Shown here: positions 6,665 to 58,632 of the stretch, piece after piece
How the letters are laid out: the number at the start of each line of letters is the position of its first letter
Numbering within the stretch: position 1 is the first letter of the stretch
Origin: a virus
DNA length: 64,000 bases
IMG/VR virus record: IMGVR_UViG_3300035695_000001
Span: 32,001 to 96,000 of that record
Direction: 5' to 3' (one strand)
Made by a program: the position numbers and the translations under genes
Notes under the pieces: model-generated
Seen by the model: the letters and a program-made list of their open reading frames with translations, nothing else
What the model was told of the DNA's origin: nothing
The model's database searches: none

Positions 6665-6850
6665 AGCGGCCTTACGCCTCCGTGCCTCGACCCCTAGCCG
6701 GCTGATCCGCTGGTAGTGCGCTCGTCCCTTCCGCTTCGTCGCAGCCCCACCAGCCTGGCGTCCACGCTCCGCCTCGTCCGGGTAGAAGGCAGGCTCGTCC
6801 GACGCGAGGATCTGGGCCGCCCGCACCCGTCCCCCTTTCTCCTTCTTCAA
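6602..6850 (-). CDS. small KGG/GsiB-like stress peptide
   Basis: TTG start overlapping endolysin stop; ERGRQAGGAATKRKGRAHYQRISRLG resembles KGG repeat. Confidence 0.4.
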   Translation of the reverse strand: MKKEKGGRVRAAQILASDEPAFYPDEAERGRQAGGAATKRKGRAHYQRISRLGVEARRRKAASAAPSEMETQKVDGGRVRVG

Positions 6851-7521
6851 GACGCTGCCCCGCCATGGCAAGCGATCGGGATCTCCCGGAACCGGCTCAA
6901 GTCCACGCTGGCCCCGACCCCGGCGACGCGGCCGTGCCCGGTGAACTGCCACCCCACTACCTGCGGGTCCTCGCCCCACGCTCCCCATGGCTTGCAGACG
7001 GCTGGGGCGAGCGACGAGTAGGACGCCACCCAGAGCCGGTACCTCGTCAACTCTTGGTGGGCCGCCATGCCCATGCCCGCCGAGACCCAGGCCGCCGAGT
7101 AGAGGATGGGCGGCTCGCCGACGTCCTGCTCGACCAGGGCCAGGAACTTGAGCAGCGCACCGACGGTGGGGAACTTCCCCTGCGACCCGACGGAGCGCTC
7201 CACGTCCACCATCGGCACCAGCATCGGCCCGTCCCACCCGTCGTCGGCGATGTGGAGCTGCCGGAGGAAGTTGTCCGCCTGCGCCTCGGGTTCGGAGAAG
7301 GGCGAGTAGAAGTGGTAGCCCCGCACCGGGATCCCGACCACCCGAGCCGCCTTGACGTTGGCGATCCCGTTGGTGGTGACCGACCCAGGCCCAGCAGCCC
7401 CCTCGCTCAACTTGACCCACGCCGCGTCCACCTTGGGGACGTTGGCGGCGACGAGGGACCAGTCGGGGAGGCCCTGGCTCGGGCCGGTGTCCAGGATCAG
7501 GTGCGGTGCTTCGACGGGCAT
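6847..7521 (-). CDS. GH25 muramidase (endolysin)
   Basis: D.S..Q...DW, VKLSEG, GYHF, PMVDVE, LWVASY, WQFTG, VDL motifs. Confidence 0.9.
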   Translation of the reverse strand: MPVEAPHLILDTGPSQGLPDWSLVAANVPKVDAAWVKLSEGAAGPGSVTTNGIANVKAARVVGIPVRGYHFYSPFSEPEAQADNFLRQLHIADDGWDGPMLVPMVDVERSVGSQGKFPTVGALLKFLALVEQDVGEPPILYSAAWVSAGMGMAAHQELTRYRLWVASYSSLAPAVCKPWGAWGEDPQVVGWQFTGHGRVAGVGASVDLSRFREIPIACHGGAAS

Positions 7522-7539: not shown

Positions 7540-8133
7540 TCATGGGAGGCTGTCGCGTACCAGGACGCAAGTGCTGCCGTAGTCTCTATGGCCGCGGTTG
7601 TGGGGAAACCCGGTGCCCTGCTGGATGAAGCCTGGCCCGTGCCTTGACGGGTCGTAGATCCCGACGTTCGGCACCCACCAGCCAGTCAAGCCAGCCAGCC
7701 CCGGAGGTGGTGGCCCTCGCCAGTGCTTGCCGGCGTTGGCGATCGGCCTGTCCCCGAGGTCCCCCAGCGCCGTGATGGCGGCGATGACGTGGGCGTCGTG
7801 CCGGTCGCACCAGTCCCTGCTCGACATCCTGGCGTCCCCTGGTACGCACCTCTGTGCCCGGAGGAAGGCGTCTGGGAGTGGGTACGCCTCCAACTCGGTG
7901 CCGGCCGCAGATGCGACCTCGTGGAGCAGTAGGATCTCCGCCGTCGTCGGGAGCCTCGCCCCGAGCCTCTCGGCGATGGCCAGTGCCTCGTCTGTGCTCA
8001 GGTGGGCGAGCCCTGGCCCGTTCGGCACGGGGTCCAGGAGCGGCGTTTGCGTGACCCACACCGACCCGAGCGGCACCCACGACGGGACGACGACGGCCTC
8101 GATGGGGGTAGCGTAAACGTCGGCCATGCTCAC
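7540..8133 (-). CDS. conserved hypothetical protein (AGKHW...GWW...IQ...HxDY)
   Basis: Coupled to upstream gene; RLPT motif and conserved-looking C-terminus. Confidence 0.7.
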   Translation of the reverse strand: MSMADVYATPIEAVVVPSWVPLGSVWVTQTPLLDPVPNGPGLAHLSTDEALAIAERLGARLPTTAEILLLHEVASAAGTELEAYPLPDAFLRAQRCVPGDARMSSRDWCDRHDAHVIAAITALGDLGDRPIANAGKHWRGPPPPGLAGLTGWWVPNVGIYDPSRHGPGFIQQGTGFPHNRGHRDYGSTCVLVRDSLP

Positions 8134-8747
8134 TCCGTCGCGGCGAACGCGCCCCGGCGGATCTGGACGAGGGGCTCCGACGCTTGCTCATGGAACTGGC
8201 AGGACGAGGCCACGTAGGTGCGGCACGTCGTCGGGCGCTTGTCGTACACCGTACAGGCGCTCGTCGATGGGTCGAGGAAGAGACAGCGGGGCCCGGTCTC
8301 CGTCGCCCCCTCTGGCCTGGCGGTGCCCTCGCCCGTCCACGGGACGAGGCGGATGTTGCCCACGAACCCGTCGATCCGTGGTCCCTCCGGGTAGAAGTCC
8401 ACGCCCCGCTCGGCGTCCTCCCGCCCGAGCCTCACCACGTCGTCGGCGTCGATCTGGACCTTGGTGTAGACCCCGCCACAGCAGGCGCTGGTGCAGCCCA
8501 CGCACTTGGGCTCACCCTTGAGGCTCTCGCGCTCCCGCACGTACCGGAGCCCCGCCTTGGCCAGGATGTTGAGGGCCTCCCGCATGTACTCGGGGAGCCT
8601 CTCGTCGATGGGGACGACCTCCTCGTAGAGGGTTGGGTTGGCCCCCTCCCCCACGGGGACGTGCAGGGTGACGGTGGCGGTGAGCGCCGTCGCGTCGAGG
8701 AGGATCGAGGAGAGCCAGCGGGGCTGAGCGTCGCGTAGGTCGGCCAT
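8130..8747 (-). CDS. YkgJ-family Cys-cluster (Zn/Fe-chelating) protein
   Basis: CVGCTSACC...CLFLD...CTVYDKRPTTCRTY. Confidence 0.85.
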   Translation of the reverse strand: MADLRDAQPRWLSSILLDATALTATVTLHVPVGEGANPTLYEEVVPIDERLPEYMREALNILAKAGLRYVRERESLKGEPKCVGCTSACCGGVYTKVQIDADDVVRLGREDAERGVDFYPEGPRIDGFVGNIRLVPWTGEGTARPEGATETGPRCLFLDPSTSACTVYDKRPTTCRTYVASSCQFHEQASEPLVQIRRGAFAATE

Positions 8748-8760
8748 GGCCCAGCCTACC

Positions 8761-9069
8761 TCAGCGCGGAGCCTCGCAGGCATCGACGGCCTGGCACGAC
8801 GTCGCCGAGGCCCGGCAGTCCATGTTGAGGCGGAGCATCCCCGAAGCGATGGCGTTGGTGAGCACGACCTCGCACGGCACCCCGGCGGGGGTCGGCTTGC
8901 CACCCTCGCAGCCGAGGATCCGGTAGTGCTCACAGACCGCGGCGACGCTGGCCTGGGGAGCGTCGCGCAACGGGGCGGGAGCCGTCGTCGACTGGTTGGA
9001 CGATGAGGACCGGCCTGACGAGCACGCCTCGATGACCAGCGCAGAGGCGAGGAGGATGGCGGGCTTCAC
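8761..9069 (-). CDS. small Cys-rich lipoprotein
   Basis: Signal peptide with IEAC lipobox-like end; six further Cys; GTGA overlap. Confidence 0.6.
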   Translation of the reverse strand: MKPAILLASALVIEACSSGRSSSSNQSTTAPAPLRDAPQASVAAVCEHYRILGCEGGKPTPAGVPCEVVLTNAIASGMLRLNMDCRASATSCQAVDACEAPR

Positions 9070-9932
9070 GACGCGGTCTCCTGGGCGGGCGCCCGGTTCA
9101 CGAGCCATAGGTCACCCGAGCGCATCCAGCCCTCGCTCATCCAGAACCTGCCCCCGTCGGCGAAGCCCTGGCCCCAGGAGTTCCTGACCCGGTACCAGCG
9201 CTGTGCGGTCCCGTTCACGGTGACGACCCGCCGGCCGACCACCACCATGGCGTGCCCGCCAGAAGCCTTCGCGGGGAGGTCCACCGGCTGGCTCGGGTCG
9301 AACTGGCCGGCGCAGAAGGCGTCGTCCACGTCGACGCCGATGCAGACGGGGTGCCCGGCCGCCAGCGCCGCGTCCACGTTGTCGCCGAGGTCCCCGGCCA
9401 CGTCGTCGATCACCTGGGCTTCCAGCTCGCCGTCCGTCGAGCGCCGGTCGTACGCCTCGCGCACCACCTCGGCGGGAGGCTCGCTCCGGAACTGGTCGGT
9501 GGGCAGCCCGTCCCCGTCCGGTGCGCCGCTCTTGGACTGGTAGGGCCACGCCGCCTCGGGCGGGATCCCGACCTTGGCCGCCATCGTGAAGATGGACCGG
9601 AACGTGGTCCCCGCGTCTCGGTCGAGCGTGCCGTCCACCGCCCTGCCACAGCGGTACAGCCACTGGCGGCTCCCCATCACGGCGTTGGGGTTGCCCCGCA
9701 GCGCCTCGATGATGTCGGCCTCGGCGGCAGAATGGCCCCCGCAGGATCCCTCCGCCTCCTGGTTCAGGATCGGCACGCTGGCGTCGGTGGCGATGAGGAT
9801 GTCGCCGGGGAGGTTGACGCCTGGACTGGCGGTGAAGGAGCGGAAGCCGCGCCCCGCTGCCCGCAGCGGGTCCCTGAAGAACCCGAGCAGGATCGGCTTG
9901 CCGAGGTGGCCATGGACGAGCGGGGGGCTCAC
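9066..9932 (-). CDS. papain-like C1 cysteine peptidase
   Basis: NQ...GSC (oxyanion Q, catalytic C), GGHAMVVVG (H), VRNSWG (N). Confidence 0.9.
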   Translation of the reverse strand: MSPPLVHGHLGKPILLGFFRDPLRAAGRGFRSFTASPGVNLPGDILIATDASVPILNQEAEGSCGGHSAAEADIIEALRGNPNAVMGSRQWLYRCGRAVDGTLDRDAGTTFRSIFTMAAKVGIPPEAAWPYQSKSGAPDGDGLPTDQFRSEPPAEVVREAYDRRSTDGELEAQVIDDVAGDLGDNVDAALAAGHPVCIGVDVDDAFCAGQFDPSQPVDLPAKASGGHAMVVVGRRVVTVNGTAQRWYRVRNSWGQGFADGGRFWMSEGWMRSGDLWLVNRAPAQETAS

Positions 9933-10474
9933 TTGCGGGCCGCCCGGACCGCCAGTGGGGTCGGGACGACCAGCCGCGGGGCCTGGGTCGCCATCAGCGC
10001 GCCGCTCCCCCCGTCGGCCGGCGTCGAGGCGGTCGGCTGGGCGGACACGATCCCGAGCGGGCCGAGCAGCGCCATCATCTCGGAGTACGCCTGCGCGAAG
10101 GAGGCGAACGCCGCCGCCATCTGGCCCTGCGTCGCGTGCTCCACCCCGGCCAGGCCCTGCTCCCCGAGCACGAGCGCCCCCTGGGCCTTGGCGATGGCCG
10201 CCTCGATCTCCGCCTGCTTGGTCGGGTTCGGCGAGGCTCGGAAGTAGGAGGCTACCCCCTGCGAGATCATGCCCAGGATGGCGACCGCGTCGCTCACCAC
10301 CTCGGAGACCGTGGGCAGGGCGGCGACGAGGGCCGCGCACCCAGTCGAAGAGACGAACGCGATGGGCGCGACGAAGAACGGGGCCGCGACGATCGTTCCC
10401 ACGCCGCAGCAACGTAGGACGCGGCGGGCAAGCATCTGCTCCAGGTGCTTCCAGACGGACAGGGGGCGACGCAT
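9929..10474 (-). CDS. putative lipoprotein, helical Ala-rich
   Basis: Hydrophobic leader ending STGC; start may be downstream (MLARR). Confidence 0.65.
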   Translation of the reverse strand: MRRPLSVWKHLEQMLARRVLRCCGVGTIVAAPFFVAPIAFVSSTGCAALVAALPTVSEVVSDAVAILGMISQGVASYFRASPNPTKQAEIEAAIAKAQGALVLGEQGLAGVEHATQGQMAAAFASFAQAYSEMMALLGPLGIVSAQPTASTPADGGSGALMATQAPRLVVPTPLAVRAARK

Positions 10475-10578
10475 CAGAGAACCTCTCTGGCCTGCGAGCG
10501 ACCCGACGCCTTACCCGTGGAGAAGCCTACCCCGTGCTTGGGGCGGTGTGCAAGGTGTGGCTTGGGGGGAGGAGGAGA

Positions 10579-10601
10579 GGCCGGGCCAGTAGAGCCCGGC
10601 C
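10579..10601 (-). terminator. GC hairpin downstream of the 844-aa gene
   Basis: GGCCGGGC-N7-GCCCGGCC; no clear U tract. Confidence 0.35.
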
Positions 10602-10610
10602 GGGGGCTGG

Positions 10611-13145
10611 TCAGGCGGGCTTGTAGAGGTCGTTGAGGAGGGCCATGTAGGCTTGGTAGCGCTTGTCCGCCATCTGCCTCGATGCCACGGTTGGCCACTC
10701 GCCTCCGTAGTCGACGCTGGCCTTCTCCAGCGGCTTGAGGAGCGCCCACGCTTCGGCCAGTGCCTTGCCTCGGGCCTCCCCCATCTCTTGCGGAGCGTCC
10801 GGATTGGCGGCCAGGAACGCCGGCATGCGCCTGGCGATGTCCCGGCCAGGCATTCCGCTGGCCTTGTACTCGGCCTGCCATGTCGGGTCGTTCTGGATCC
10901 CACCGACAGGTTTGAACTCCCACACGACTTCGTGCCCCTTGGGCGCTGGCAGCGATGCCGTCTCCCGGTCGTCCGTCGCCTCGATGACTCGATCGCCTTC
11001 GGTCCACGCGACGACGGCGCTCACCATGGGCTTCTCGGTCTCCCACGTCACTGATGCCACGATGCCGCCGGTCGGATCCCCGTGCTTGGCGTGCCACCGG
11101 GAGACCCTCGCAGACGTCTTGCCCAGGATGGGGTGGACGAAGTCGCCCAACTTGCCGTCCATGATCTCGGCCTTGAACGACTCCCAGTAATCGGGGAACC
11201 AGCGGGCGAACCCCTTGGGCGGGATCGCGACGTGCGAGTTGAGGAAGGCGCACTCCACAGTCCAGGAAGCGCACTTCCCTGGCTGCACGGTCGTGTCGAC
11301 GATGGTGCCGAGGAGCGGCTTCCCGCGCCAGGACATCGCAGGCACCGCCTCACGGACCTGGCGCTCCTGCTCCAGGCGGGCGCCGGTGACGGCGGCATCC
11401 TCCTCGTCCGAGAACCGGGCCGGGTCCCCCTCAAACATGGCAGAGAGGCCGGTGATCTTGCCGTCCTCCGAGACGACCAGAGGTCCCGTCACGAGGTGGC
11501 ATTTCCCCTCGCACGAGGCACCGTTGCTGAGTTTCACGATGCGGTAGTCGAGCATCTCGGCGTTGAGGAACGCCTGGTCCAACGAAAAGCCGTGGCCGTC
11601 GATGGGGGCGATGTCGACGTGTTCCTTGACCTCGATCCTGCGCACGGTCGCGCCTCCTGGCGTGGTCCTGGCGAGGCAGGTGGACAGGTGAACGTTGTTC
11701 ACGCGGAGACCACCACCACCTTGGGCGGGCGAGAACAGTTCCAGGAAGAAGCGCTCGCTGAGGTTGGCGCTCGGAAACTTGGGTTCATCGGCCTGCGCCT
11801 TGGCAGCGGTTGCGAGGATGGTGTCCTCGGCCGGCGCAGAGACCGGGACGGCGATGGGCTCTGGTCGCTGGGCATGGCCCTCGACGAGTTGTGGCACGTA
11901 GGCCCGCACCTGCGCGCTGAACTCCCAAGGCATGGTGATGTTCCCGCCAGGCTTGACCTCGACGTCGATCCACGGTCGGCGGTCCGGCGCCCTGAAGAGC
12001 CTGAAGGTCACCGTGGTGTCGGTCGGATTGTGCCAGGTGCTCAGCCCACTCCGATAGAGGAGCGGGCTGGAAGGCGGCTCGGACCGGCATGGTACGACGG
12101 GCGCCGGGACGGTCTCGAAGGTCCTCGGGCACAGATGCGTGAGCGCGAGCGGGCCGCCGACGATGTCTCGGAGGATGACGTGCTGGCTCGGGTCGCGGAC
12201 CCGCATGGCGAACGTGACGTGGATGGTCACGCGGAACTGGCCGGAGACGACCCACGATTCCGGGTCCCTGTCGCCGATGCGCTGCGGCACGCCGTCGAAG
12301 ACTGCCACGCTGCACACGATCGAGCCGGACGGCGCGCTGACGCTGTACGGCTGGACGATCTCGACGCCAGCCGGGTTGATGATGGCGACGACGTCGTCGG
12401 GGCAGGACGTAGACGTAGCGCACTGGTAGCCACCGGAACGGTCTTCGACGTCGGTTCCATCGGCGAATGCCGACGCGGGCAACCCCTTGCCGATCTGGTA
12501 GCGCTCCGCGGTCCCCTTGCTGGCGACGATGAGGTAAGGGCGGCCCACGGTCCTGGCGACCGACGTCTGGTCCTTTGCAGCCTCGACGAGACCCGCCGTG
12601 AGCGCACGCCGCTGGCCGCCGTTCCCCATCGCGGTCCCGGCCCATTCACGGTAGGTGCTCCGACTGATCCCGGCGTAGGCACCGCCAGGCTCGATGGCAC
12701 CGCCGAACAGGCCGACCGCCGTCACGTTGCCTTTGTCGTCGACCCCGTACCCAGTGAGCACCTGGGCTTCGATCTTCTCGGCCATCGCCCTGAGCGCCGC
12801 CGTGACAGTTTCGCGGAAGATGGCCTCCATGACGGCGGGCGCATAGCCAGAAGCCTTTGCCTTCAGCGCGTCGGGAACAGAGACCGTAATGGGCTCGCTG
12901 CGAACCTGCGCGAAGCAGAGGGCCGCAGGGACGGTGGGGTTGAAGGCGTACGCCGAGGACCAGGACATGGTCGGGAAGACGACGTCCCAGTGGCAGTTCT
13001 TCCCAGACTCTTGGACGATGGGAAGCGCGGCGAGCAGGCTGTCGCTTCCGAGCAGGTGGCCGCTCAGGCTCCACTTGAAGGAGTCTGACAGGGCCGAGGC
13101 GAGCGCGATGGCGTCGTCGGTCGTAATCTCGTTCGTGGTATCCAT
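10611..13145 (-). CDS. multidomain chimera of structural-protein paralogues (MCP + post-MCP protein + tail tube + DNA-circularisation N-domain)
   Basis: Shared motifs with genes in this window: YAGISRSTY.W.G (MCP), W.N.TD.TV.F.LF (41597 gene), AQGGGG.R.NNV...FEGDPA (tube), VEC.FLN...G.ARWFP.YWE.FK...VHP.LG (28121 gene). Confidence 0.9.
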   Translation of the reverse strand: MDTTNEITTDDAIALASALSDSFKWSLSGHLLGSDSLLAALPIVQESGKNCHWDVVFPTMSWSSAYAFNPTVPAALCFAQVRSEPITVSVPDALKAKASGYAPAVMEAIFRETVTAALRAMAEKIEAQVLTGYGVDDKGNVTAVGLFGGAIEPGGAYAGISRSTYREWAGTAMGNGGQRRALTAGLVEAAKDQTSVARTVGRPYLIVASKGTAERYQIGKGLPASAFADGTDVEDRSGGYQCATSTSCPDDVVAIINPAGVEIVQPYSVSAPSGSIVCSVAVFDGVPQRIGDRDPESWVVSGQFRVTIHVTFAMRVRDPSQHVILRDIVGGPLALTHLCPRTFETVPAPVVPCRSEPPSSPLLYRSGLSTWHNPTDTTVTFRLFRAPDRRPWIDVEVKPGGNITMPWEFSAQVRAYVPQLVEGHAQRPEPIAVPVSAPAEDTILATAAKAQADEPKFPSANLSERFFLELFSPAQGGGGLRVNNVHLSTCLARTTPGGATVRRIEVKEHVDIAPIDGHGFSLDQAFLNAEMLDYRIVKLSNGASCEGKCHLVTGPLVVSEDGKITGLSAMFEGDPARFSDEEDAAVTGARLEQERQVREAVPAMSWRGKPLLGTIVDTTVQPGKCASWTVECAFLNSHVAIPPKGFARWFPDYWESFKAEIMDGKLGDFVHPILGKTSARVSRWHAKHGDPTGGIVASVTWETEKPMVSAVVAWTEGDRVIEATDDRETASLPAPKGHEVVWEFKPVGGIQNDPTWQAEYKASGMPGRDIARRMPAFLAANPDAPQEMGEARGKALAEAWALLKPLEKASVDYGGEWPTVASRQMADKRYQAYMALLNDLYKPA

Positions 13146-13242
13146 CTCGTAGGGCCCTCACACGGCCCGCGGGCTCGGTTGTGGCGGGGGTTCGTCCCCG
13201 CCGGCACCGGGCCTGCTCTTCTTCTACGCCTAGGTCGGAGGA

Positions 13243-13279
13243 ACTGTCTAGCAGTGCCGCCCGGGTCGTGCTAGACACT
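13243..13279. promoter_or_regulatory. ACTGTCTAGCA-N15-TGCTAGACACT element in divergent intergenic region
   Basis: Inverted motif between the 844-aa gene and the HicB-like gene. Confidence 0.75.
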
Positions 13280-13324
13280 GGTTCGGAGGACGGATGGCGC
13301 TGCTACAGCGCTCGGAGGTAAGCC

Positions 13325-13708
13325 ATGGCAGAAGACGACCCCATCGTGGACCCGTACGACGCGCCGCCGGACAGCGAGCCGGTGACGGAAGAAGACCTCG
13401 CGCGCATTGCTGGAACTAGGTTGGCGATCGAGCGCGGCGAGACCATCTCGACCGAGGAATTGCAACGTCGACTGGATGCTGAGTTCCACGTCCGCTTGAC
13501 GGTCAAGTTCGACCGAGAGGAAGACGGGCGCTGGATCGGCGACGTGCCTGAGTTCCATGGTTGCCACGTCTACGGTGCCAACAGAAACGAGGCGCGCGTC
13601 AAGGTCAAGGCGCTGGCCCTCCGCGTCCTCGCCGACCGCATGGAGCACGGGGAGGCCGCGGCCCCAGAAACGATCACGTTCACGACCGAAGGGAACGACG
13701 AGGAATGA
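13325..13708 (+). CDS. HicB-like antitoxin (orphan) with N-terminal addiction-module-like helix
   Basis: DREEDGRWIGDVPEFHGCHVYGANRNEA...ALRVLADRMEHGE matches the HicB N-domain pattern; no adjacent HicA. Confidence 0.75.
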   Translation: MAEDDPIVDPYDAPPDSEPVTEEDLARIAGTRLAIERGETISTEELQRRLDAEFHVRLTVKFDREEDGRWIGDVPEFHGCHVYGANRNEARVKVKALALRVLADRMEHGEAAAPETITFTTEGNDEE

Positions 13709-14763
13709 GCAAGCAGGACAAGGTGGTCGGCCACGGGCTGACGATCACGATCGAGACGATCCCGTGGAAGGAGTGCGGGAGGCTCCTGGAGGAGCACAAC
13801 GGCCGCAACCGGCCCCTGAGCATGACGATGGTCCAGCGCTACTCGCGGGACATGACCGCCAAGCGCTGGCCCCTCTTCCACCAGGGTGTCGCCTTCGACC
13901 ACGCCGGCAACCTGATCGACGGGCAGCACCGACTCGCAGCGGCCTACGCGGCGAAGGTCGACCTGCTCGTGGTGGTCTGTCGGTACACCGACGCCAAGGC
14001 CGGCGAAACGGCGATGATGCTGTGCGACACGGGCAAGTCCCGTTCGGTCGCGGACACCCTCGCCATCGGCGGCGTGATGAAGAAGGAACTGGCGCGGCAG
14101 GCAGCGCCGGTCGCCGGGCACGTCGCCTATCTGCTCAACATGGAGGCCGCCGCGAAGATGACCCGGCAGGAGATCGGCGACGTCTACCTCGCCAACCGTG
14201 AGGCGATCGACTGGGCCGTCACCACGCTCACCGAGAAGCGCTTCTCCGCTCCGCTCCGGGCATGCTTCGCCATCGCCTGGCTCACGGATGCAGCGAAGAC
14301 AGCCGAGTTCACCGCCCAGGTTCGGGAAGGCATCGGTGGCCCAGGCGCGGCGTCGTCCCTCTGGAACCGAGCGATGGCCGACGGGCAGTTGACCGGGATC
14401 CACAGCCTCGGGGAGACGCATCACGCGATGAACCGGGCCCTCCGGGTGCTCAAGGTCCACCTGAACGGCGAGGTGGCACCTCCCAAGTTGCACACCTCGG
14501 AGGAGGGGCTCAACTGGTTCCGAGCCCGCCTCAAGGTCGGTGCTCCTGTCCCCGACTCGGCGTCGGTCGCCATCGGGAAACTGCTCAACCAGGGCGGCAC
14601 GTTCAAGGTAGCCGACATCGCCAGGACGCTCGACATGACCCCGGCCTACGTCAGCACGGTGGCCAGCGAGATGGCTTCGTCCGGGCAGATCCGCAAGGTC
14701 GGCAAGGGCGTCTTCGCGACCATCGTCCAGCCGGACCCCTCGCCGGAACACGACTCGCCGTGA
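13705..14763 (+). CDS. ParB/Srx-like DGQHR-domain protein with C-terminal wHTH
   Basis: NR.L....V..Y..DM....W, LIDGQHRLAA, DTGK.RS; C-terminal IARTLDMTPAYVS...GQIRKVGKGVF. Confidence 0.8.
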   Translation: MSKQDKVVGHGLTITIETIPWKECGRLLEEHNGRNRPLSMTMVQRYSRDMTAKRWPLFHQGVAFDHAGNLIDGQHRLAAAYAAKVDLLVVVCRYTDAKAGETAMMLCDTGKSRSVADTLAIGGVMKKELARQAAPVAGHVAYLLNMEAAAKMTRQEIGDVYLANREAIDWAVTTLTEKRFSAPLRACFAIAWLTDAAKTAEFTAQVREGIGGPGAASSLWNRAMADGQLTGIHSLGETHHAMNRALRVLKVHLNGEVAPPKLHTSEEGLNWFRARLKVGAPVPDSASVAIGKLLNQGGTFKVADIARTLDMTPAYVSTVASEMASSGQIRKVGKGVFATIVQPDPSPEHDSP

Positions 14764-28120: not shown

Positions 28121-29077
28121 TCAGGCCGCCGTGTAGTAGGTGATGGCCTTGTACTTCGGCACCTGGACGAATGGGATCAACTGCGGGTTGAGCCCGAGGA
28201 TGTCGTCGAAGGTGTTGCCCACCGAGTTTGCAAACGCGGCCAGGGTGGTAGGTGTGTCGATGGTCCTGCTCGCGGTTGGCCGGTTGGCCAGGCCGATCTG
28301 CGTCTGGGCGCCCTGGATGTAGGAGAAGAACGCCCAGACGGCCGACAGCGCCTGGGACGCCTGACAGGCGTCGAGCGACGTCAGGATCTCAGCCATCGCG
28401 ATGACGTCACCGATGAGCGCCAGGATCTGCGCCAGCGTCGTGAATGACAGCGAGAAGACGCCGCCCGAGATGGCCGCCCAGATCGACGAGAGAGAGATGC
28501 TCGCGCCCGTCGGCATCCCGTACATGCCCCACGTTTGCTGGGGCAGCCTCCCAGGCCCAGGGAAGACACCGAACTCGGCGCACGCTGCATCGGCAGCGCT
28601 CGCCAATGTGGCTGGGTTGCCGGCGAGCACGTCGCCGAAGAAGGCGATGGTGCTCGGATCCTCGTTGGTCAACTCCCAGGTGATGGTCACCGTGATGCCG
28701 CTCAGGCTCTCGGTGGTGATGGTCGTCGACCCGTCCGCCACGACGGCGCGAACCGACCCAAGGAGCGGGTGGACGAGATCCCCGGGGTTGCCGTCGAGCA
28801 CCTGGGTCTTGAAGACCTCCCAGTATTCTGGGAACCAGCGCGCGTACCCCAGCGGTGGCGCTTGCGTCTGCGTGTTCAGGAAGCGGCACTCGACCTTGAA
28901 CGGCTTGACGTCCATCCCGGTCCAGTCGTGGCCGGCGATGTCGACATAGGGGTACTCACGCTTCGCCTGACGGTGCGTCCATTCGAGCGGGAAGGCGTGG
29001 TACGGCGGGAGCAAGAGCCCGCGCCAAGACGGCGCGGAGAGCCCTTGGATGATGGTGCTGTCGCCGGTCGCCATCAC
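28121..29077 (-). CDS. DNA-circularisation protein (Mu gp43/gpN-like) with LysM-like C-terminus
   Basis: PSWRG, REYPYVD, GDLVHPLLG; C-terminal TL...A......DI..LNP. Confidence 0.85.
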   Translation of the reverse strand: MMATGDSTIIQGLSAPSWRGLLLPPYHAFPLEWTHRQAKREYPYVDIAGHDWTGMDVKPFKVECRFLNTQTQAPPLGYARWFPEYWEVFKTQVLDGNPGDLVHPLLGSVRAVVADGSTTITTESLSGITVTITWELTNEDPSTIAFFGDVLAGNPATLASAADAACAEFGVFPGPGRLPQQTWGMYGMPTGASISLSSIWAAISGGVFSLSFTTLAQILALIGDVIAMAEILTSLDACQASQALSAVWAFFSYIQGAQTQIGLANRPTASRTIDTPTTLAAFANSVGNTFDDILGLNPQLIPFVQVPKYKAITYYTAA

Positions 29078-31249: not shown

Positions 31250-31639
31250 CTACGACCCCACCTGGTTCAAGGCGTCGTCCAGACGCTGCTCGGCGAGCGC
31301 GGCGACCTCCGCCGTACGGGAGAAGCCCTTCTTCTCCACGAAACTGGCGTGCTCGGCGTGCGCTCCCCAGGTCACCGTCACCGAGTCCGCGTCGATGACG
31401 GGAACTTCGGCGTAGGTGCTGGCGTCCAGCGCGCCGGTCTTGCTCTTGTACGCGGCGCTCGCCAGCGCCTCGGCCGTGGCTTCGTCCAGCGTGGTCTTCA
31501 TGACCTCGGCGACGCCTTCCAGAGCCTTGATCTGTTCTGCGGAAGCGCCAGGCATCTCAGCGGCTTCGTCCACCTCGCGCAACGCTGCCGCGACAGCGTC
31601 TGCACCAGTGGCAGTGAAGTCCCAGAGGAGGGCTGGCAT
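31250..31639 (-). CDS. HK97 gp10-like tail-completion protein
   Basis: KTGALDAS...V....AEHASFVE.KG pattern. Confidence 0.55.
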   Translation of the reverse strand: MPALLWDFTATGADAVAAALREVDEAAEMPGASAEQIKALEGVAEVMKTTLDEATAEALASAAYKSKTGALDASTYAEVPVIDADSVTVTWGAHAEHASFVEKKGFSRTAEVAALAEQRLDDALNQVGS

Positions 31640-32991: not shown

Positions 32992-33393
32992 TCACTGGAA
33001 CAGAGCCGGGTCGCCCTCGAAGTCCGCGGAGAACTCCGTGATCGCCCCGTCCGCCGTCGTGACCTTCGGACCCGTGGTGATGTGGCACTGCCCCGAAGCC
33101 GCGGCCCCGTCGCTGTACCGCTGGATCTGGTAGTCGAGGATCTCGGAATTGGCGAACGCCAGTTCCAGGTCGAGCCCGTTGGCCAGAAACTGGAAGTCCA
33201 TGTGGTCGACGATGTTGAACTTCCTGGTGGTCGATCCAGCCGTCGTCCCCATGTAGTTGCGGAGCGGGGAGCGCAGCGTCTCGCGCTTCCCGTCCAGTGA
33301 CGTGTCGAACTTGACGTTGTTGGCGCGGATCCCTCCGCCACCCTGGGCAAGGGACCAGATGGACACGAAGTACAGTTCACCCAAACCTGCCAT
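32992..33393 (-). CDS. tail tube protein
   Basis: 133-aa beta-rich protein directly after sheath, GGAG RBS, ends FEG. Confidence 0.8.
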   Translation of the reverse strand: MAGLGELYFVSIWSLAQGGGGIRANNVKFDTSLDGKRETLRSPLRNYMGTTAGSTTRKFNIVDHMDFQFLANGLDLELAFANSEILDYQIQRYSDGAAASGQCHITTGPKVTTADGAITEFSADFEGDPALFQ

Positions 33394-33424: not shown

Positions 33425-35665
33425 TCAGCTCGGGTCGCTGGTCTCGTTGATCAGCGTCTGCTGCCAGTTGTTGTGGCGCGCGACCCTGAGCGCGACGCCG
33501 AGGCTCCACCCGCCCTGCTGAAGAATCGTGGTGTCGGTGGCCGCCTTCATGTCCTTCAGGTAGGTCGGGTCGAGCAGTGGCTTCCCGTTCTGGTACTGAC
33601 CGCACATCTGCGTGATGAGCAGGTTCGCGGCCGAGTCCACCATGAACGGGTAGACCTGCCCAGGGATGGGCTTCACGCCAGAGGCGGGGTTCGCCTGGAT
33701 GTTGCCCTTGTTGAGGCCACGCGCCTTGCAGATGGCCGCGAAGGCAGCCCACCACTCGATCATCACCGAGCCGATGTGGCCCTCCCTCGCCCGGTAGTCC
33801 TCCGTGGTCGTAGGGCTCCCCGGGGGCAGCCAGGAGTAGCTGGCGATGTCCCGGCGGATGAAGGCCGCGCCGGACCCGTCGTAGGTCACGTCACAGCACC
33901 CCCCGTTGAGCAGGGTGACCTCGTCGGTCTGGGACCAGACGTTGGACAGGAGGTACGGCGTCGGGAAGGGGCAGACAGTGCCGAGGTTGGAGTCCGTGGT
34001 GTAGCCGGTCAGGTTCACCGCGGCGTAGACACTCTGCTCCTTGCTCAGGATCCCGGTGTACGCCGCGGCGCGCATGCTCGGGGGCCAGTCATTGGCGGTG
34101 GCCGGGATGACCTTGAAGAAGGTGCTGTTGACCACGCTGGCCTGGGCGACCGATGCGGACTGCGTCGAGGTGCCGTCGACCCCGCAGATCCCGAACTGGC
34201 TCTTGCCGACGGTGGGGGTGAGGCTCTGCGAGATGTAGGCGCTGTACTGGCCGACACCACCGTCGCTCGCGTTGCCACCGCTCGTCGCCGTGCAGGCAAT
34301 GGCGTGGTAGGTGAACTCCCTCGCCGAGACTGCGGTGATCGCGTTCGCGCAGGAGTCCGCACCCGCCCCGTTGACGGTCGAACCGGCCGAGATCGTGGTG
34401 GCGTTGGTCGGGTTGTCGTAGCTGAGCCGGACCTGGTCGAGCCAGTAGTTGGAGCGCGCCCCCAGTTGGTAGGTAGTGAGGGTGATCGTCGAGGCGCCGC
34501 CCGACGCCGCCCCGTTGTGCTCGGAGGTGTCCCAGCCGGCCACCTTGGCGACGACCGACCCGGAGGTGAACTGGACCCCCTTGGCCGTCGCGCCTGCCGT
34601 GTTGGTCGCCCACGTCACGCTGTTGTTGGCGTTCGCGGTGCCCGTCGAGCCGGCCGTGCCGCCGGTGAAGGTGCTCGTCAGGAGGCCAGCCATCTGCGAC
34701 GCCGTCACCTGAGCGACGTTGGGCACGTTCCCGGTGCCGTTCGTCAGCGCTCCGACCGAGAGGCCGAGCGACGTCAGCACGTCCGCGGAGCCGGCCACGA
34801 CCGCGCCCACCGCGGCGCTCCCGAGCTGGTTGCTGGTGAGTTGCGTCTGCCCTCCGTTGTTGAGGGCCACGCCGCCCGTGAGCCCGCCAGGGAGGGCGCT
34901 GTTGATCTTGGCGTGGAAGGCCGCCTGCGTTGCCTCCGACCCGGAGAACGTGACCACCGTCTGCGTCCCCATGAACGACAGGGTCAGCGTGTGGCTGGCG
35001 GTGACCGCTGCGTACGTCGCGCCTGAGCCGGTGACCGTCGCCGCCGCGGCCGAGATGGTGAGGGTCTGCGCGCCTGCCTCGTCCACCTTGCCGACCAGGG
35101 TGTCCCCGTTGACCAGGGCCACGGGGAAGGCGTTGGCGCTGCTGGTCTCGGAGCCGTTGGTGGCCGCGCTCCCGCTCATCGCCGAGAAGGGGAGGTCCGG
35201 GTCGGCGTTGATGGTGTCGACGAGGTTGGAGACCTGGGTGCTCGGCGAGTCGCCCGCTGCGACCGTGATGCCCATCCTGGACTTGCCGGGGACGTTGACG
35301 GCGCAGGAGTCGATGTAGAGGTCGCAGCCGACACTGGCGTTCGTCGCGAGGGTCCAGGTGCGCGTGCTCGCAGTCGCGCCGCCCGCCTGCGCCATCGCCA
35401 CGATCGTCACGAGGACGTTGGGGTCGATGATGCGCAGCGCGCGGTGCATCCACGCGGCCTCGGACCTGGAGCCGTAGCGGGTGTTGCAGTCGGCCTGGGA
35501 CTTGACCGGCGAGCCCAGCGTCTCGACGCTCTCCGTCCCGGCGGCGAGCATGTTGGCGATGATGACGACGTTGCGGGAGGTCCCGTTCGCCGTGCTCCCG
35601 CCCTGCGCGGGCTTGAAGTCACGTTCGGAACTTGGAATGGGCCACGAGGCCGGGGGGAAGCTCAT
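33425..35665 (-). CDS. tail sheath protein (Mu gpL-like) with inserted domains
   Basis: V.IIANM..AGT, YG.RSE...M, LL..G...V.YD.SG...I.R.I; large contractile-tail gene. Confidence 0.9.
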   Translation of the reverse strand: MSFPPASWPIPSSERDFKPAQGGSTANGTSRNVVIIANMLAAGTESVETLGSPVKSQADCNTRYGSRSEAAWMHRALRIIDPNVLVTIVAMAQAGGATASTRTWTLATNASVGCDLYIDSCAVNVPGKSRMGITVAAGDSPSTQVSNLVDTINADPDLPFSAMSGSAATNGSETSSANAFPVALVNGDTLVGKVDEAGAQTLTISAAAATVTGSGATYAAVTASHTLTLSFMGTQTVVTFSGSEATQAAFHAKINSALPGGLTGGVALNNGGQTQLTSNQLGSAAVGAVVAGSADVLTSLGLSVGALTNGTGNVPNVAQVTASQMAGLLTSTFTGGTAGSTGTANANNSVTWATNTAGATAKGVQFTSGSVVAKVAGWDTSEHNGAASGGASTITLTTYQLGARSNYWLDQVRLSYDNPTNATTISAGSTVNGAGADSCANAITAVSAREFTYHAIACTATSGGNASDGGVGQYSAYISQSLTPTVGKSQFGICGVDGTSTQSASVAQASVVNSTFFKVIPATANDWPPSMRAAAYTGILSKEQSVYAAVNLTGYTTDSNLGTVCPFPTPYLLSNVWSQTDEVTLLNGGCCDVTYDGSGAAFIRRDIASYSWLPPGSPTTTEDYRAREGHIGSVMIEWWAAFAAICKARGLNKGNIQANPASGVKPIPGQVYPFMVDSAANLLITQMCGQYQNGKPLLDPTYLKDMKAATDTTILQQGGWSLGVALRVARHNNWQQTLINETSDPS

Positions 35666-35666
35666 C

Positions 35667-38861: not shown

Positions 38862-40946
<2,085 letters not shown>

Positions 40947-41375: not shown

Positions 41376-41600
41376 CTACTCCTCGGCGGGTTGTGGGGCC
41401 TTCTCCGGAGCCGTGAACTCGGGGCACTTGCAGCCGGCCACCGTGCAGCGGCCCGTCCGCATGGCGTGCTTGGCCTGCGTGTGCTTGCACCCGACCGGAT
41501 GCCGGCACTTGGTTCGCGGGTGGACGACGGGGACCACCGACGGAGCCGCATGCTCATCGGCCCGCGCCGTGGTGGGCTGAGGCTCTGCCGGCTCGGTCAG
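41376..41600 (-). CDS. small zinc-finger protein (start uncertain)
   Basis: C....C.H....H.....C....C.C..F. Confidence 0.5.
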   Translation of the reverse strand: MTEPAEPQPTTARADEHAAPSVVPVVHPRTKCRHPVGCKHTQAKHAMRTGRCTVAGCKCPEFTAPEKAPQPAEE

Positions 41601-42301
41601 CCGGCCTCGGCTTTTGGGGCCTCCGCCTCCGCCTTGGCCTTGACGAGCGCCGCTTCCAGTTCGCGGATGCGCCGCTCGGAGGCGTCCTTCTCGGCGTCCT
41701 TGGCGGCGACCTTGGCGGCGAGTTCCTTGGCCTCGGCGTCCTGCCTGTCCATGCGGGCCTGGATGGCGGCCAGAGCGTCGAGGCTCACCGGCTCGCCGAC
41801 GACGCCGTGCCCCTTCAACTTGGCCTCGGCGACGCCCTGCTCGTGGGAGCGGACGAGCGAGAAGTGGACGTCGGGGGGGGGCGCCCCCATCTTGACCAGC
41901 AGCGGCGCGTGGCCGCCGATCACGATGCCCGTGCGGTCCGTCGTCTGGATGGCGCGGTCGTACTCGGAGGACAGCGCGACCGACTCCCCAGGCTTGATCT
42001 CGACGTGCTGCCACGCCGTCTTGGCTGGCCCAGGCCCCTTGAAGAGCTTGAACTTGACGGTCTGGTCGGTCGTGTTCTTCCAGACGGTCGTGCCCACGGC
42101 GGTCACGCCACCGGACACGCGGAGTTGCTCGTTGCTGGCCCGGAGGCGGTCGTTCTCGGCCCGAAGCCGTTGCAGTTCGTCGGTGTACTCGGACATGGTC
42201 GTACCTGGTTCTGGGAGAAAGGTGGCCGCGTCGACCGCAGCGAGGCTGGCTCGCGCCGCCTCGCCCATGGCCTCCGCGATCTTGAGCAGTTCAGGGCGCA
42301 C
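41597..42301 (-). CDS. post-MCP head-associated protein (alternative start 42196)
   Basis: Directly after MCP; beta domain W.NTTD..V.FKLF plus coiled coil. Confidence 0.7.
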   Translation of the reverse strand: MRPELLKIAEAMGEAARASLAAVDAATFLPEPGTTMSEYTDELQRLRAENDRLRASNEQLRVSGGVTAVGTTVWKNTTDQTVKFKLFKGPGPAKTAWQHVEIKPGESVALSSEYDRAIQTTDRTGIVIGGHAPLLVKMGAPPPDVHFSLVRSHEQGVAEAKLKGHGVVGEPVSLDALAAIQARMDRQDAEAKELAAKVAAKDAEKDASERRIRELEAALVKAKAEAEAPKAEAG

Positions 42302-42307
42302 GCGACA

Positions 42308-43372
42308 TCACGAGGGGGAGATGTCGGCGATGTACCCGTTGGCGTTGGGGTGCTCGACGCGAAGCTGGACGCGGACCCACACGTTGATGGGGTACGAATC
42401 GCCGTTCTTCGGGAGCACCTCGACGCGGAGTTGGAGGTTGACGGGCTGCTGGGTGTCGCCCGGCCCGAGGCCGGTGCCGCCGAACGCGGTCATGTCCTCG
42501 CCGAGCGTCTCGAACATCTCGGGGATGGCGCGGGGCAGGGCCTGAAGCTCGATCGTGTCGTTGTTGAGCATGATGAGCTTGTCGGCCGGGCAGGAGATGT
42601 CCGGCTCCAGCGGGATGTTGTTCCAGAAGAGCTTCTGGGTGCCGGCGCCGAACTGCTGCGGCATCTCGCCCGCGGTCTGCACGCGCTGGATCGGCGTGAA
42701 GAGGCTCTGGTACTTGGAGTGGACGGCGTACGAGCAGAGGATCCGGGTGGGCTCGCGGCCGGAGTTGGTCAGGATCTGCTGGTAGAGGGCCTGGAGCAGC
42801 GCCAGCGTGAGGGGGCGCGGGGTGCCGCCGTTGCTGAGCACGTTGCCGGCCCAGCCGGGGTAGGTGGAGCGGGAGATCCCGGCGTAGCTGCCGGACAGTT
42901 CCAGCGCGCCACCGAGCACACCGATCAGGTTCTGGTTGCCGTTCCCGTCGGTGCCGGTGCCGGTGTAGAAGTCGTCGTTGATGAGCTTGATCAGCCGGGA
43001 GATGGCGCCGCCGATCTTGGCGTCGAAGAGCCGCATCAGGATGTCGGGAGACCCGGGGCTCGTGGCCGCGGCGTCGACCGCGAGTCCCTCGATCTTGGTC
43101 GGGGCGCGGTAGTTGGCCCAGGCCAGGGTCGCCGGCACGTCGGGGTCGTAGGTGAACTCCGAGGAGCTCACGTCCGAACCCGGCGCGAACGCGGCGGCCG
43201 GGGTCTCGGTGGTGGGGAACTCCGCGTCCCACGGCACGTTCTTGCCAGCCCCATCCACGATCTTGACGCCTTGGAGGGCGACGACCTTGCGGTTCCACTG
43301 GAACGCGAGGACACGGTTGAAGAGCTGGCTGAGCGCCGGGCTCAGAACGGACAGGGTGTCGATGTTGGACAT
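42308..43372 (-). CDS. major capsid protein (HK97 fold)
   Basis: 354 aa after scaffold, GGAG RBS; D.Y.G.G, YAGISRS.Y..W, L.V.HPNA.G.I.DI. Confidence 0.9.
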   Translation of the reverse strand: MSNIDTLSVLSPALSQLFNRVLAFQWNRKVVALQGVKIVDGAGKNVPWDAEFPTTETPAAAFAPGSDVSSSEFTYDPDVPATLAWANYRAPTKIEGLAVDAAATSPGSPDILMRLFDAKIGGAISRLIKLINDDFYTGTGTDGNGNQNLIGVLGGALELSGSYAGISRSTYPGWAGNVLSNGGTPRPLTLALLQALYQQILTNSGREPTRILCSYAVHSKYQSLFTPIQRVQTAGEMPQQFGAGTQKLFWNNIPLEPDISCPADKLIMLNNDTIELQALPRAIPEMFETLGEDMTAFGGTGLGPGDTQQPVNLQLRVEVLPKNGDSYPINVWVRVQLRVEHPNANGYIADISPS

Positions 43373-54837: not shown

Positions 54838-56793
54838 TCAGGCAGGGGGCATCGCGCCGGTGCTCCGGTAGACTGGCGCCGGCATCGCTCGGCTCAGCAC
54901 CGCCCAGGCGATGGCAGCGGTGAGCACGAGGTCGTCGTTGCTCCCGTTCTTCGCCCTGGCCTTGCCCCAGGCGTCAACCACGAAGGTCCGGAACTCCTCC
55001 AGCACCTTGACGTCTGGGGTCCGCCAGTTCCCGACGCGGTGGTCCTGCTCCAAGCCTGAGAGCGCGGCCTCTCGGCTGGGGCCGGTGGTGACCCACCCCT
55101 TCTTCCCGTCGGCGTCGGCCCAGATGTTTGGCCAACCGACCCAGTCGGCCCGCGCCCACTCGATCAGGCGCTTGGCGAAGGCTGGCGCGACCCTGGCGAT
55201 CTCCCGCAGGTCTTGCGACGCTTCGACGTCGCACAGCCTGGCCTCTATGCAAGCACGGTCGCCGACCACGTCAGCGATCATCTTCGGCCTGGCCATCTCG
55301 TCGATGGTGGAGATCCCGGTGTTGTTTTTCTCGATGGCGATCCAGGCGTTGCCGTACCGGATGGCCAAGGCGACAGCGAGCCGGCCCAGTTCCTTCGGCT
55401 TCACTTGTCCATGCAGCGTGGCTACGTGCCTTGGGCGCGCCCCCCGGGTCCACACCTGCAAGGCGGCCGGGTCGCCACCCTCGCCGCCGCTGGTGTCACC
55501 CGCGACGAGGTAGCTCTCCTGCTTGTCGTAGTCCTCGAAGATCCGGAGCCCGTAGGAGGCGCCGGCCCTGCGAACCTGAATCACCTTCGGAGGCTTGGCC
55601 TTCTCCTTCGCGGTCGCCTCGCCGATGAGGTGCTCTGTGACCTCCTTGGCGAAGTAGCCGGTGCCCGACGCGATGAAGCATGTGATCGGGTCGGTGGGCA
55701 TCTCCTTGTCGACGCGCATCTGCCCCTTGGCGCGGACCTGGGCCCGGTACCACTTGAGAAACTCCATCGCGATCGTCGTGATGGACTTGGTCCCGCGTTC
55801 GATGAGACTCAGCATCGTTTCCTCCTTGGAAAGGTGTTCATGGAGCAGGGCCCAGCACTGCTCCTCGCGGACGCGGCGCTCGTCGATGGGCTGCTGGTCG
55901 GGCGTGACCGTCTCGCCTTCGTCGAGCGGCAGGCGCCGGTTTGGCAACTCGAACCACGCGAAGAAGTGCGGCGTGAACTCGTCCCCCTCGGCGGACGTGG
56001 CCCGCTTCCACATGCGGTGGAAGTAGGCCCCACCACGCGGGTCGTCGTCGCTCGTGCTGACCCCGTTGGGAGTCGACTCGATCGTGACCTCGGTCCCAGG
56101 TGCCGGCGCGGTGACCGAGTTGAGCACGCTGTCCATGGTGGCCGCAGCGACCTCCCAGAAGGCGATCTCGGTGCAGTGCAGCCGGTGCGTGGTGCCACCG
56201 CGGCCCTTCTTGTCGGCGGTGTGCTCGCTGGCGCCGGCCTCCAGAACCTCCAGCACTCCGCCGCCAACCGTCGAGGAGAGCGCCCACCGCCCCTTGCCCC
56301 CGGCCTTGGCTTGGAGCGGGATGTCGAGCCCCTTGTCGACCAGGCTCTTGAGCATGAGGTCGATCGTTCTGGCGAAGTCCTTCTGCATCCCGTGCTCGCT
56401 CTCCGTCTGCACGATGACGCGGACGTTGGCCCCTGGGTGCATGAGCCAATACCAAATGTCGCGGCCGATCTCGACGGTCGACATGCCCAGCTTTCTGGCC
56501 TTCAAAACTTGGTCCCTACCCGTGCGGGCAGCGTCGAAGTCTCGCTGGAGCTGCGTGAGCACGAAGGGGACCGGCCGGCCCGCCATCTCGCCTGGCTTCT
56601 CGCCTGCCTCGGCTGCTGGCACGCTCAGGTGCCCGCAGAACCCGACGAAGTCCCCAGCGTACTTCTCCCTCAGCGCGGCGAGGGTGGAGAGCGGCTTGCT
56701 GTCCCAGTTCTCCAGCAGGGACAGGGTCAGGTGGACGAGGTCGTCCAGACTCTTGGGGCCTCTGGGCTGAGGGCGGGCAGCAGCGCGGGGCAT
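54838..56793 (-). CDS. terL: terminase large subunit
   Basis: LKARKLGMST (Walker A), LHCTE.AFW (Walker B), ESTPNG, GDTS.G.G.D, IEKN, NDDLV nuclease motifs. Confidence 0.95.
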   Translation of the reverse strand: MPRAAARPQPRGPKSLDDLVHLTLSLLENWDSKPLSTLAALREKYAGDFVGFCGHLSVPAAEAGEKPGEMAGRPVPFVLTQLQRDFDAARTGRDQVLKARKLGMSTVEIGRDIWYWLMHPGANVRVIVQTESEHGMQKDFARTIDLMLKSLVDKGLDIPLQAKAGGKGRWALSSTVGGGVLEVLEAGASEHTADKKGRGGTTHRLHCTEIAFWEVAAATMDSVLNSVTAPAPGTEVTIESTPNGVSTSDDDPRGGAYFHRMWKRATSAEGDEFTPHFFAWFELPNRRLPLDEGETVTPDQQPIDERRVREEQCWALLHEHLSKEETMLSLIERGTKSITTIAMEFLKWYRAQVRAKGQMRVDKEMPTDPITCFIASGTGYFAKEVTEHLIGEATAKEKAKPPKVIQVRRAGASYGLRIFEDYDKQESYLVAGDTSGGEGGDPAALQVWTRGARPRHVATLHGQVKPKELGRLAVALAIRYGNAWIAIEKNNTGISTIDEMARPKMIADVVGDRACIEARLCDVEASQDLREIARVAPAFAKRLIEWARADWVGWPNIWADADGKKGWVTTGPSREAALSGLEQDHRVGNWRTPDVKVLEEFRTFVVDAWGKARAKNGSNDDLVLTAAIAWAVLSRAMPAPVYRSTGAMPPA

Positions 56794-57757: not shown

Positions 57758-57780
57758 GTCTAGCACCTCGGTGTCTAGCA
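57758..57780 (-). promoter_or_regulatory. tandem TGCTAGAC sites; putative leaderless extended -10
   Basis: Minus strand reads TGCTAGACT-CTGGCGC-ATG(57749). Confidence 0.6.
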
Positions 57781-58632
57781 GTCGTGCTTGGGCCAGCCGA
57801 TGTCGCGGATGACGGCGTGCGCGTTCGGCTGGTCGACCACCAGTTGCGTGACCAGCGTGGCAGCGACGCCAGGTACCTCCCCCTTCTCGCCGCGTGAGAA
57901 CTGGAACCGCACCGGCGACGAGTCGCCCACCCGGAGGTAGTTCAGGCAGACGTGGTCTGGTTGCAGGAGCACGATGATGCCCCGCGGGAACCGCTCGACG
58001 TTGGAGAGGCGCATGCCTACCTGCTGGAGCACCTTGCCGGCAGCGTCCATCGCGTCGGGGTTGCCCACGGCCAGCGTGGGAGCCGTACCGCTGGCGGTGA
58101 CGCAGTAGTTGACTGCCCGGGTCGCCAGCGCCGTCGTGAGGGGCCTCGGCACGCCGCCGTTGGCGAAAACGTTGGCGCTCCAGTGCGGGTAGGTCGATCG
58201 GCTGATGTTGGCGTAGACGGCGGTGGCGGCCAGCGCACCACCGAGCAGGCCGTAGATGGCCGGGTTGTGGTTCCGGTCGATCCCGTTCCCGACGTGGAGG
58301 TCGTCCTCGACGAGACGGGCCAGGGCTCCGAACACCTTGGTGACCCGCTCACGGAACCGCTCGGCGAGCGCTTCCCGCCCGTAGGTCTCCGCCGCGAGCA
58401 CGTCCTCCGCCGTGACCTGGAAGGCGGCCCGGTACATGCCCCACGGGAGGCACGCTTGCCCGGTCGGCCCGGTCACTCCATCGGGGCGTGCCTCCCAGTT
58501 GACGTTCTTGCCGTACCCTGGCCGCGCCTCCAAGGCGGCCATGAGGCTGTTCGGGCCGGCGTGCTTGGCTCCGAACTCGAAGTGGTAGGTGCTGGTGAGG
58601 GCTGAGGTGATCCTGGTGGCTGCGTCGTCCAT
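57775..58632 (-). CDS. truncated major capsid protein paralogue
   Basis: GKNV.W, DD...G.G.D.N.N....G.LGGAL.....YA.ISRSTYP.W..NV..NGG.PRPLT.AL, QL.V..PNA...I.DI shared with MCP. Confidence 0.9.
   Translation of the reverse strand: MDDAATRITSALTSTYHFEFGAKHAGPNSLMAALEARPGYGKNVNWEARPDGVTGPTGQACLPWGMYRAAFQVTAEDVLAAETYGREALAERFRERVTKVFGALARLVEDDLHVGNGIDRNHNPAIYGLLGGALAATAVYANISRSTYPHWSANVFANGGVPRPLTTALATRAVNYCVTASGTAPTLAVGNPDAMDAAGKVLQQVGMRLSNVERFPRGIIVLLQPDHVCLNYLRVGDSSPVRFQFSRGEKGEVPGVAATLVTQLVVDQPNAHAVIRDIGWPKHDC

Follow-up and report, generated by a model that had tools for sequence, protein, structure and literature searches.

An open reading frame of 844 residues, found in the genome of an uncultured phage recovered from rhizosphere metagenomes, chains together diverged copies of four virion proteins: the major capsid protein (MCP), the protein encoded after it (post-MCP protein), the tail tube and the tube-like domain of the tube initiator. 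Three of the four copies lack a loop that links subunits, the tube and initiator loops being recognised as putative ring-stacking hairpins. The gene is under selection, and a promoter-like element of its own stands upstream. Because loop loss, selection on the fold and the separate element all fit, they point to a non-assembling mimic of virion parts that would be used in conflict.

The window analysed here is a 64,000-nucleotide stretch of the phage genome, which is complete and circular (162.7 kb, ~68% GC). At ~19-48 kb of the window lies a contractile-tail virion module with portal, MCP, sheath, tape measure, tube initiator, hub and baseplate J, so that the phage carries full head and tail modules, in contrast to a satellite without virion genes of its own. 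It encodes a LexA-type repressor, and an integrase search gave no match to PF00589 (tyrosine integrase) or PF07508 (large serine recombinase). Distant relatives of its MCP occur in one Haliangiales assembly and one Planctomycetales assembly, which may serve as a lead to the host.

Domain architecture of the fusion gene

The fusion comprises the following features (window coordinates):

10611..13145, minus strand: fusion ORF, 844 aa, with a coding-like codon score, GC3 of 0.75-0.95 along its length and one contig spanning it
12162..13145, minus strand: MCP copy, residues 1-328, HK97 fold, its E-loop shortened and two other segments shortened or rewritten
12915..12998, minus strand: shortened E-loop hairpin of the MCP copy, residues 50-77, from alignment and model
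11823..12047, minus strand: residues 367-441, copied from the middle domain of the post-MCP protein (BLASTP E 9e-7)
11412..11774, minus strand: tail-tube copy, residues 458-578, with 13 aa of the putative ring-stacking hairpin absent
11034..11345, minus strand: tube-like domain of the tube initiator (DNA_circ_N, Mu gp43 type), residues 601-704, from sequence and model
10902..10931, minus strand: 10-aa motif weakly like the tape-measure N-terminus (p ~0.035)
10614..10898, minus strand: predicted helical C-terminal region, for which a homologue search was empty

The cognate genes in the virion module are:

42308..43372, minus strand: MCP (PF17236)
41597..42301, minus strand: post-MCP protein
32992..33393, minus strand: tail tube, assigned by its size and its position after the sheath gene, with no family match
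28121..29074, minus strand: tube initiator (PF07157; PDB 9KI1 family; DNA-circularisation type, Mu gp43 type)

A sequence-only reading had proposed that four segments of the frame match these proteins, and BLASTP against all ORFs of the window agreed, with E values from 4e-29 to 9e-7. The tail tube matched fusion residues 460-578 (E 4e-29, 42%), the MCP residues 10-217 (E 4e-25, 33%; later alignments stretch this match to about residue 328), the tube initiator residues 628-702 (E 3e-17, 46%) and the post-MCP protein residues 367-441 (E 9e-7, 34%). The four domains keep the order of their source genes, again as proposed, as well as their orientation, and form two neighbour pairs, MCP with post-MCP protein and tube with initiator. 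Two descriptions needed trimming: the tube copy, called near full-length, lacks 13 residues of one loop, and the supposed baseplate part covers solely the tube-like domain of the tube initiator, whose whole helical/LysM part is absent. Residues 329-366, 579-600 and 705-844 returned no homologue in searches, and the last 95 residues are helical by prediction. The suggested resemblance of residues 739-748 to the tape-measure N-terminus survives in part, as the 10-mer keeps the W, F and G that three related tape-measure N-termini conserve (p ~0.035, all windows allowed for), yet it gave no BLASTP or phmmer match and lies out of source-gene order.

Two other genes of the window show internal resemblances. 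A 129-aa gene before the tape measure (31250-31639, minus strand) has a start motif resembling the tape-measure N-terminus, and a 694-aa protein between the head and neck genes (38862-40946, minus strand) has in common with the tail sheath (33425-35842, minus strand) a segment of ~100 aa, at 62% protein and 70% DNA identity, which is also present in the closest relative of the phage.

The reading frame is intact, as had been claimed: codon bias is coding-like throughout the open 844-aa ORF, and codon scores favour the annotated frame along its entire length, most weakly at the first linker. Misassembly is excluded. A 23.6-kb Logan contig of even depth (11.3) covers window 8000-14189 without any difference, so the junctions of the fusion are not assembly errors; the run behind this contig may be the source sample, which makes it a test of assembly and not of occurrence. 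Shorter identical pieces of the fusion region are present in three other runs.

Loss of subunit-linking loops and selection on the fold

AlphaFold2, given an input alignment of intact MCPs, modelled the MCP copy with a pLDDT of 82.7 and a pTM of 0.82 as an HK97 fold with spine helix, P- and A-domains; the whole fusion modelled from single sequence was uninformative (pLDDT 33). The best structural match of the MCP-copy model was the capsid of cyanophage A-1(L) (7F38; Z 21.6, rmsd 3.8, 273 aligned), and its comparison with Mic1 (6J3Q) gave a Z of 18.3. Fold and conserved core residues are common to the MCP copy and SU10-type MCPs (PF17236; Mic1 6J3Q, A-1(L) 7F38), and likewise to the initiator domain and the Mu gp43 tube initiator (PF07157; 9KI1; PMC11915804). 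Unlike these cognate families, the fusion has its linking loops deleted, lacks the helical/LysM half of the initiator and is a single chain encoded outside the virion operon.

The hairpin before the MCP spine helix, which is the E-loop by topology, spans 30 aa in the fusion against 38-46 in 99 intact MCP relatives, so that the copy falls short of the full-length E-loop of a functional HK97-fold MCP. Two more segments of the copy are shortened or rewritten, at ~223-231 and 295-307 of the phage's own MCP, with boundaries that depend on the alignment. In the tube copy, 13 residues are gone from a loop that all five intact tubes have in full; the initiator copy is ~20 residues short at the equivalent loop, which is whole in all seven homologues. 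In both copies this deletion is the sole large gap. From its position in the tube fold the deleted loop is probably the ring-stacking hairpin, which would leave both copies without this element. Searching solved structures by sequence with the tube family gave no match, nor did the profile of the tube match that of the initiator. The conserved tube core is present, the tube copy being 47-51% identical to three tubes and the initiator copy 38-40% to two initiators, and an Atlas model covering residues 598-706 gives alignments with DNA_circ_N and Dit-like models.

Selection is evident in what the gene has kept. Among the MCP columns invariant in the phage's own clade, the copy retains 45 of 75 that are conserved across the family (60%) against 26 of 89 others (29%; p 6.5e-5), a retention that may partly predate the copying and stem from the donor's time as a working gene. 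Fourfold-degenerate sites of the copies are at or near saturation relative to the phage's own genes and the frame is nonetheless open, whereas none of 2000 simulations of neutral change (at least 20% change) kept an open frame. The saturation of synonymous sites makes pairwise dN/dS unusable, and dN/dS among orthologues is impossible because the fusion is a singleton. The gene is under selection and not decaying. That the fusion is a singleton in all searched databases, with a gene order that suggests deletions from one block, would suit a functionless remnant of a captured structural operon that is still shrinking, or an artefact of the assembly. We consider this very improbable: a single contig covers the gene without differences, the frame is open despite saturated synonymous sites, in-frame codon bias is retained, and the deletions hit equivalent loops in three proteins as well as in unrelated copies.

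Age, distribution and upstream element

The segments had been taken for copies of the phage's own proteins, an origin that is unsupported because they are equally close to the genes of relatives. The tube copy is 47% identical to the phage's own tube and 51% and 50% identical to the tubes of two relatives, while the three intact tubes are 58-59% identical among themselves. End branches of the MCP and initiator copies measure 1.35-1.9, against 0.17-0.6 for the genes of this phage and its closest relative; the tube-copy branch (0.47) is slightly above those of intact tubes (0.27-0.35). The copies are old by these sequence distances and would stem from an ancestor or from a relative, and not demonstrably from this phage itself. 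Placing the MCP copy as sister of the phage's own MCP, as after a recent duplication, was rejected (AU p 0.005), as was a sister position to the own MCP plus that of the closest relative (AU p 0.015, with a long-branch caveat); placement within the wider clade was not rejected (AU p 0.15). Since source gene order is kept, we infer a single block: one duplicated or captured stretch of a related morphogenesis operon would have been condensed by in-frame deletions of ~8 and 4 kb. Stepwise accretion could also have produced the fusion.

Similar fusions were sought in related phages and none was found. In a 5.8-billion protein set (lengths of 464-1477 aa only) and in GenBank phages, the matches were the fusion itself or single-domain relatives; in a 1.84-billion set, each of 106 matches covered one stretch and none exceeded 414 aa except the fusion itself; and scans of metagenome and viral contigs, sensitive to close relatives only, gave no second fusion. 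Homologue searches of this kind would overlook any fusion of the same design that is unrelated to this one. G001, the closest relative (MCP 73%, genome 53% complete), lacks the fusion, including in the covered region between the tail fibres and the C1 peptidase gene, as does G002, a complete relative whose virion module is syntenic, so that the gene is dispensable in the lineage. Sixteen IMG/VR fragments (16-88% complete) have one MCP each and no extra copy.

This distribution bears on whether the fusion could assist the assembly of its own phage or be a minor component of it, a protein that buffers scaffold, chaperones or proteases, times nucleation, joins the head and tail lines or enters the particle in few copies. 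Capsid paralogues with structural roles exist, for example T4 gp24. The conserved folds, the arrangement of the domains as two neighbour pairs and the position of the gene on the virion-gene strand beyond the tail fibres are consistent with such a role. Against it, the gene is missing from both the closest relative and the complete, syntenic one; head and tail-tip domains of one chain could not reach both sites in a single particle; and rapid evolution is atypical of core assembly factors. We think this role quite unlikely.

Upstream of the fusion stands the following feature:

13246..13276, unstranded: divergent TGCTAGAC element pair, with 99 bp separating the end of its minus-strand copy from the start of the fusion

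The TGCTAGAC element occurs in 49 copies against 1.5 expected, in 27 clusters and almost always between genes; none lies within 17.5-49.6 kb, which is the 32-kb virion module (p ~0.003, before any correction for operon structure). In form the element resembles an extended -10 promoter or an operator, and its placement suggests that the fusion is transcribed apart from the virion operon. Early expression is unsupported, because genes beside the terminase have the element upstream as well. The closest relative (53% complete) does not have it. A variant, TGCTAGACT, stands 6-9 bp before apparent start codons at window 57758 and 58640 and at the genome equivalents of window 78171 and 80718, a spacing like that of leaderless transcripts that have an extended -10 box.

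The fusion gene itself lies ~29 kb from the head genes, so that its MCP copy is not in a head module after a scaffold gene. Downstream of it are a papain-family C1 peptidase (9066-9932) and a GH25 lysin (6847-7521), both on the minus strand; in a more distant phage (L003) a C1 peptidase is located within the head module. Divergent from the fusion (13325-14763, plus strand), and sharing the element pair with it, are a HicB-like gene and a gene for a 352-aa protein with a C-terminal HTH.

Possible functions and loop-trimmed copies elsewhere

Several defence systems (Avs, DSR2, CapRel and Thoeris) recognise virion folds that are conserved and that phages cannot easily mutate. The fusion bears on how phages may evade such fold-based sensing. 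In the mechanism we propose, once the operon block had been condensed in frame, selection would have kept each fold and removed the protruding loops that link subunits. We infer that the product, transcribed from its own element separately from the virion operon, would be a soluble chain of virion-like monomers incapable of normal polymerisation. The chain would bind recognisers of capsid and tube folds, be they sensors in the host like Avs7/8/10/16, DSR2 or CapRel, or inhibitors from prophages and satellites that act stoichiometrically on assembly. Binding without the completed activating contact would shield the real subunits, as a competitive decoy, and several copies in one chain would allow one gene to cover several sensors or inhibitors. 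Our preferred reading, a tentative one with somewhat less than an even chance, is therefore a decoy that does not assemble and that has several targets among the proteins recognising virion folds.

The contacts made by known sensors cut both ways. Loop 35-55 of the tail tube inserts into DSR2 and is required for complex formation (PMC11087589), Avs16 touches the tube stacking hairpin, and Avs7/8/10 touch the A-domain interface of the MCP, Avs7 also the E-loop (10.64898/2026.01.04.697583). Loss of the main epitope may abolish sensor binding altogether. Monomeric tail tube triggers DSR2 (PMC11087589) and monomeric MCP triggers Avs7 (10.64898/2026.01.04.697583), so a folded monomer could equally activate the sensor and trigger the defence. 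Loops ordered only in the particle could, moreover, vanish simply once selection for assembly has ceased, irrespective of what the new role is. A functional model for the decoy is DSAD1, the anti-DSR2 protein of phi3T/SPbeta, which competes with the tail tube for the sensor (PMC11087589). DSAD1 is small, blocks one sensor and has no described paralogy to the tube, whereas the fusion carries four true paralogues of virion proteins.

Loop loss, selection on the fold and the separate element would also fit a dominant-negative assembly poison, whose intact faces would dock on the growing procapsid, tube ring or baseplate of a co-infecting relative and block extension, with head parts tethered to tail parts and the loss of loops hiding the fusion from host sensors. 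One face kept and the linking loop lost would be the layout of a chain terminator. The LexA-type repressor makes a lysogen-like state possible. An ESMFold2 co-fold of the tube copy with three of the phage's own tube subunits lends weak support, with a score of 0.51 against 0.02 for the best control, at a level where passes are more often wrong than right and where likeness to solved tube rings could explain the score. Runs agreed in at least 83% of contacts, and the partner pLDDT was 73 or more. Among solved pairs 58 of 80 passed the same mark, and among mismatched pairs 2 of 110; only 7 of the 80 solved pairs, but both mismatches, did so with a score of 0.60 or below.

Assembly interference has precedents in Ccm (PMC8569155), Tab (PMC10884400) and Tai (PMC11364771). 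Ccm of cos-type SaPIs (SaPIbov5) is, like the MCP copy, a diverged HK97-fold capsid homologue used in conflict, 24% identical to the helper capsid protein; it is a single domain, satellite-encoded, which keeps its E-loop and forms the pentamers of small shells (PMC8569155, PMC5052747), unlike an MCP copy with a cut E-loop and attached tail domains in a complete 162.7-kb phage. Tab and Tai, phage- or island-encoded with their own promoter, block the assembly of related phages, and neither is reported as a copy of a virion protein (PMC10884400, PMC11364771). Tab targets the tape measure and needs an anti-Tab (PMC10884400). In contrast, no antidote gene was identified in the fusion-bearing phage, and with the tube copy about as close to its own tube as to those of relatives, a poison should strike the phage's own assembly too. 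As no integrase was found and the copies are no further from the own than from relatives' proteins, the poison is weakened as an explanation; we regard it as unlikely.

The claim that no protein with this four-domain virion-copy architecture has been described held in the literature searched, most subscription papers lying outside the search: neither such a fusion nor loop-deleted paralogues acting as decoys appear there. The novelty of the fusion is its architecture, which is known from one genome. A decoy would be a multi-target counter to structure-based pattern recognition, and a poison a new kind of phage-against-phage weapon made from virion paralogues. The fusion is also a natural modular test set, in which each domain can be set against its intact cognate, differing mainly by the loop seen touching the sensor. 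Either way, loop-trimmed virion copies become searchable as a class of accessory genes.

Such copies stand alone outside virion modules in this phage and in two related phages. In the window, the relevant genes are:

57775..58632, minus strand: second, stand-alone MCP copy, 285 aa, with an E-loop span of 23 aa and a TGCTAGAC copy 6 bp before its start
54838..56793, minus strand: large terminase, with Walker A/B and nuclease motifs visible and no Pfam match

In a quick tree the stand-alone MCP copy groups with that of the fusion, possibly through long-branch attraction. The complete relative has a tube copy (P0064) with the same loop removed, beside its terminase and far from its intact tube. 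Further loop-trimmed MCP copies are present on a 141-kb contig, 17 kb ahead of the MCP in its head module (P0096; L025:10001-11056), among the accessory genes of a 118-kb contig whose own MCP was not seen (P0115) and on short contigs (P0052, P0054). Trimmed copies fall in two or three separate places of the MCP tree (again a quick tree), and this scatter suggests repeated origin. It is possible, if doubtful, that phages of the lineage turn virion genes into mimics unable to assemble, through loss of the very loops that connect subunits and also set off fold-sensing immune receptors, with four such mimics chained here to blunt several sensors at once.

Some smaller observations concern the same loci. 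The stand-alone MCP copy of this phage directly precedes a 213-aa gene and the terminase block, and the large terminase is 65% identical to the gene that adjoins the loop-less tube copy of the complete relative. An IS200/IS605 element (TnpA, TnpB) lies among the tail genes of the closest relative (L010:11930-13527). The portal of the 141-kb contig is read as two consecutive ORFs of 156 and 458 aa (L025:14818-16609), which suggests a frameshift, a split gene or a sequencing error. Two of the trimmed MCP copies, P0052 (L024:925-1950) and P0096, come from different samples and have in common an added N-terminal Cys/His motif that may bind zinc.
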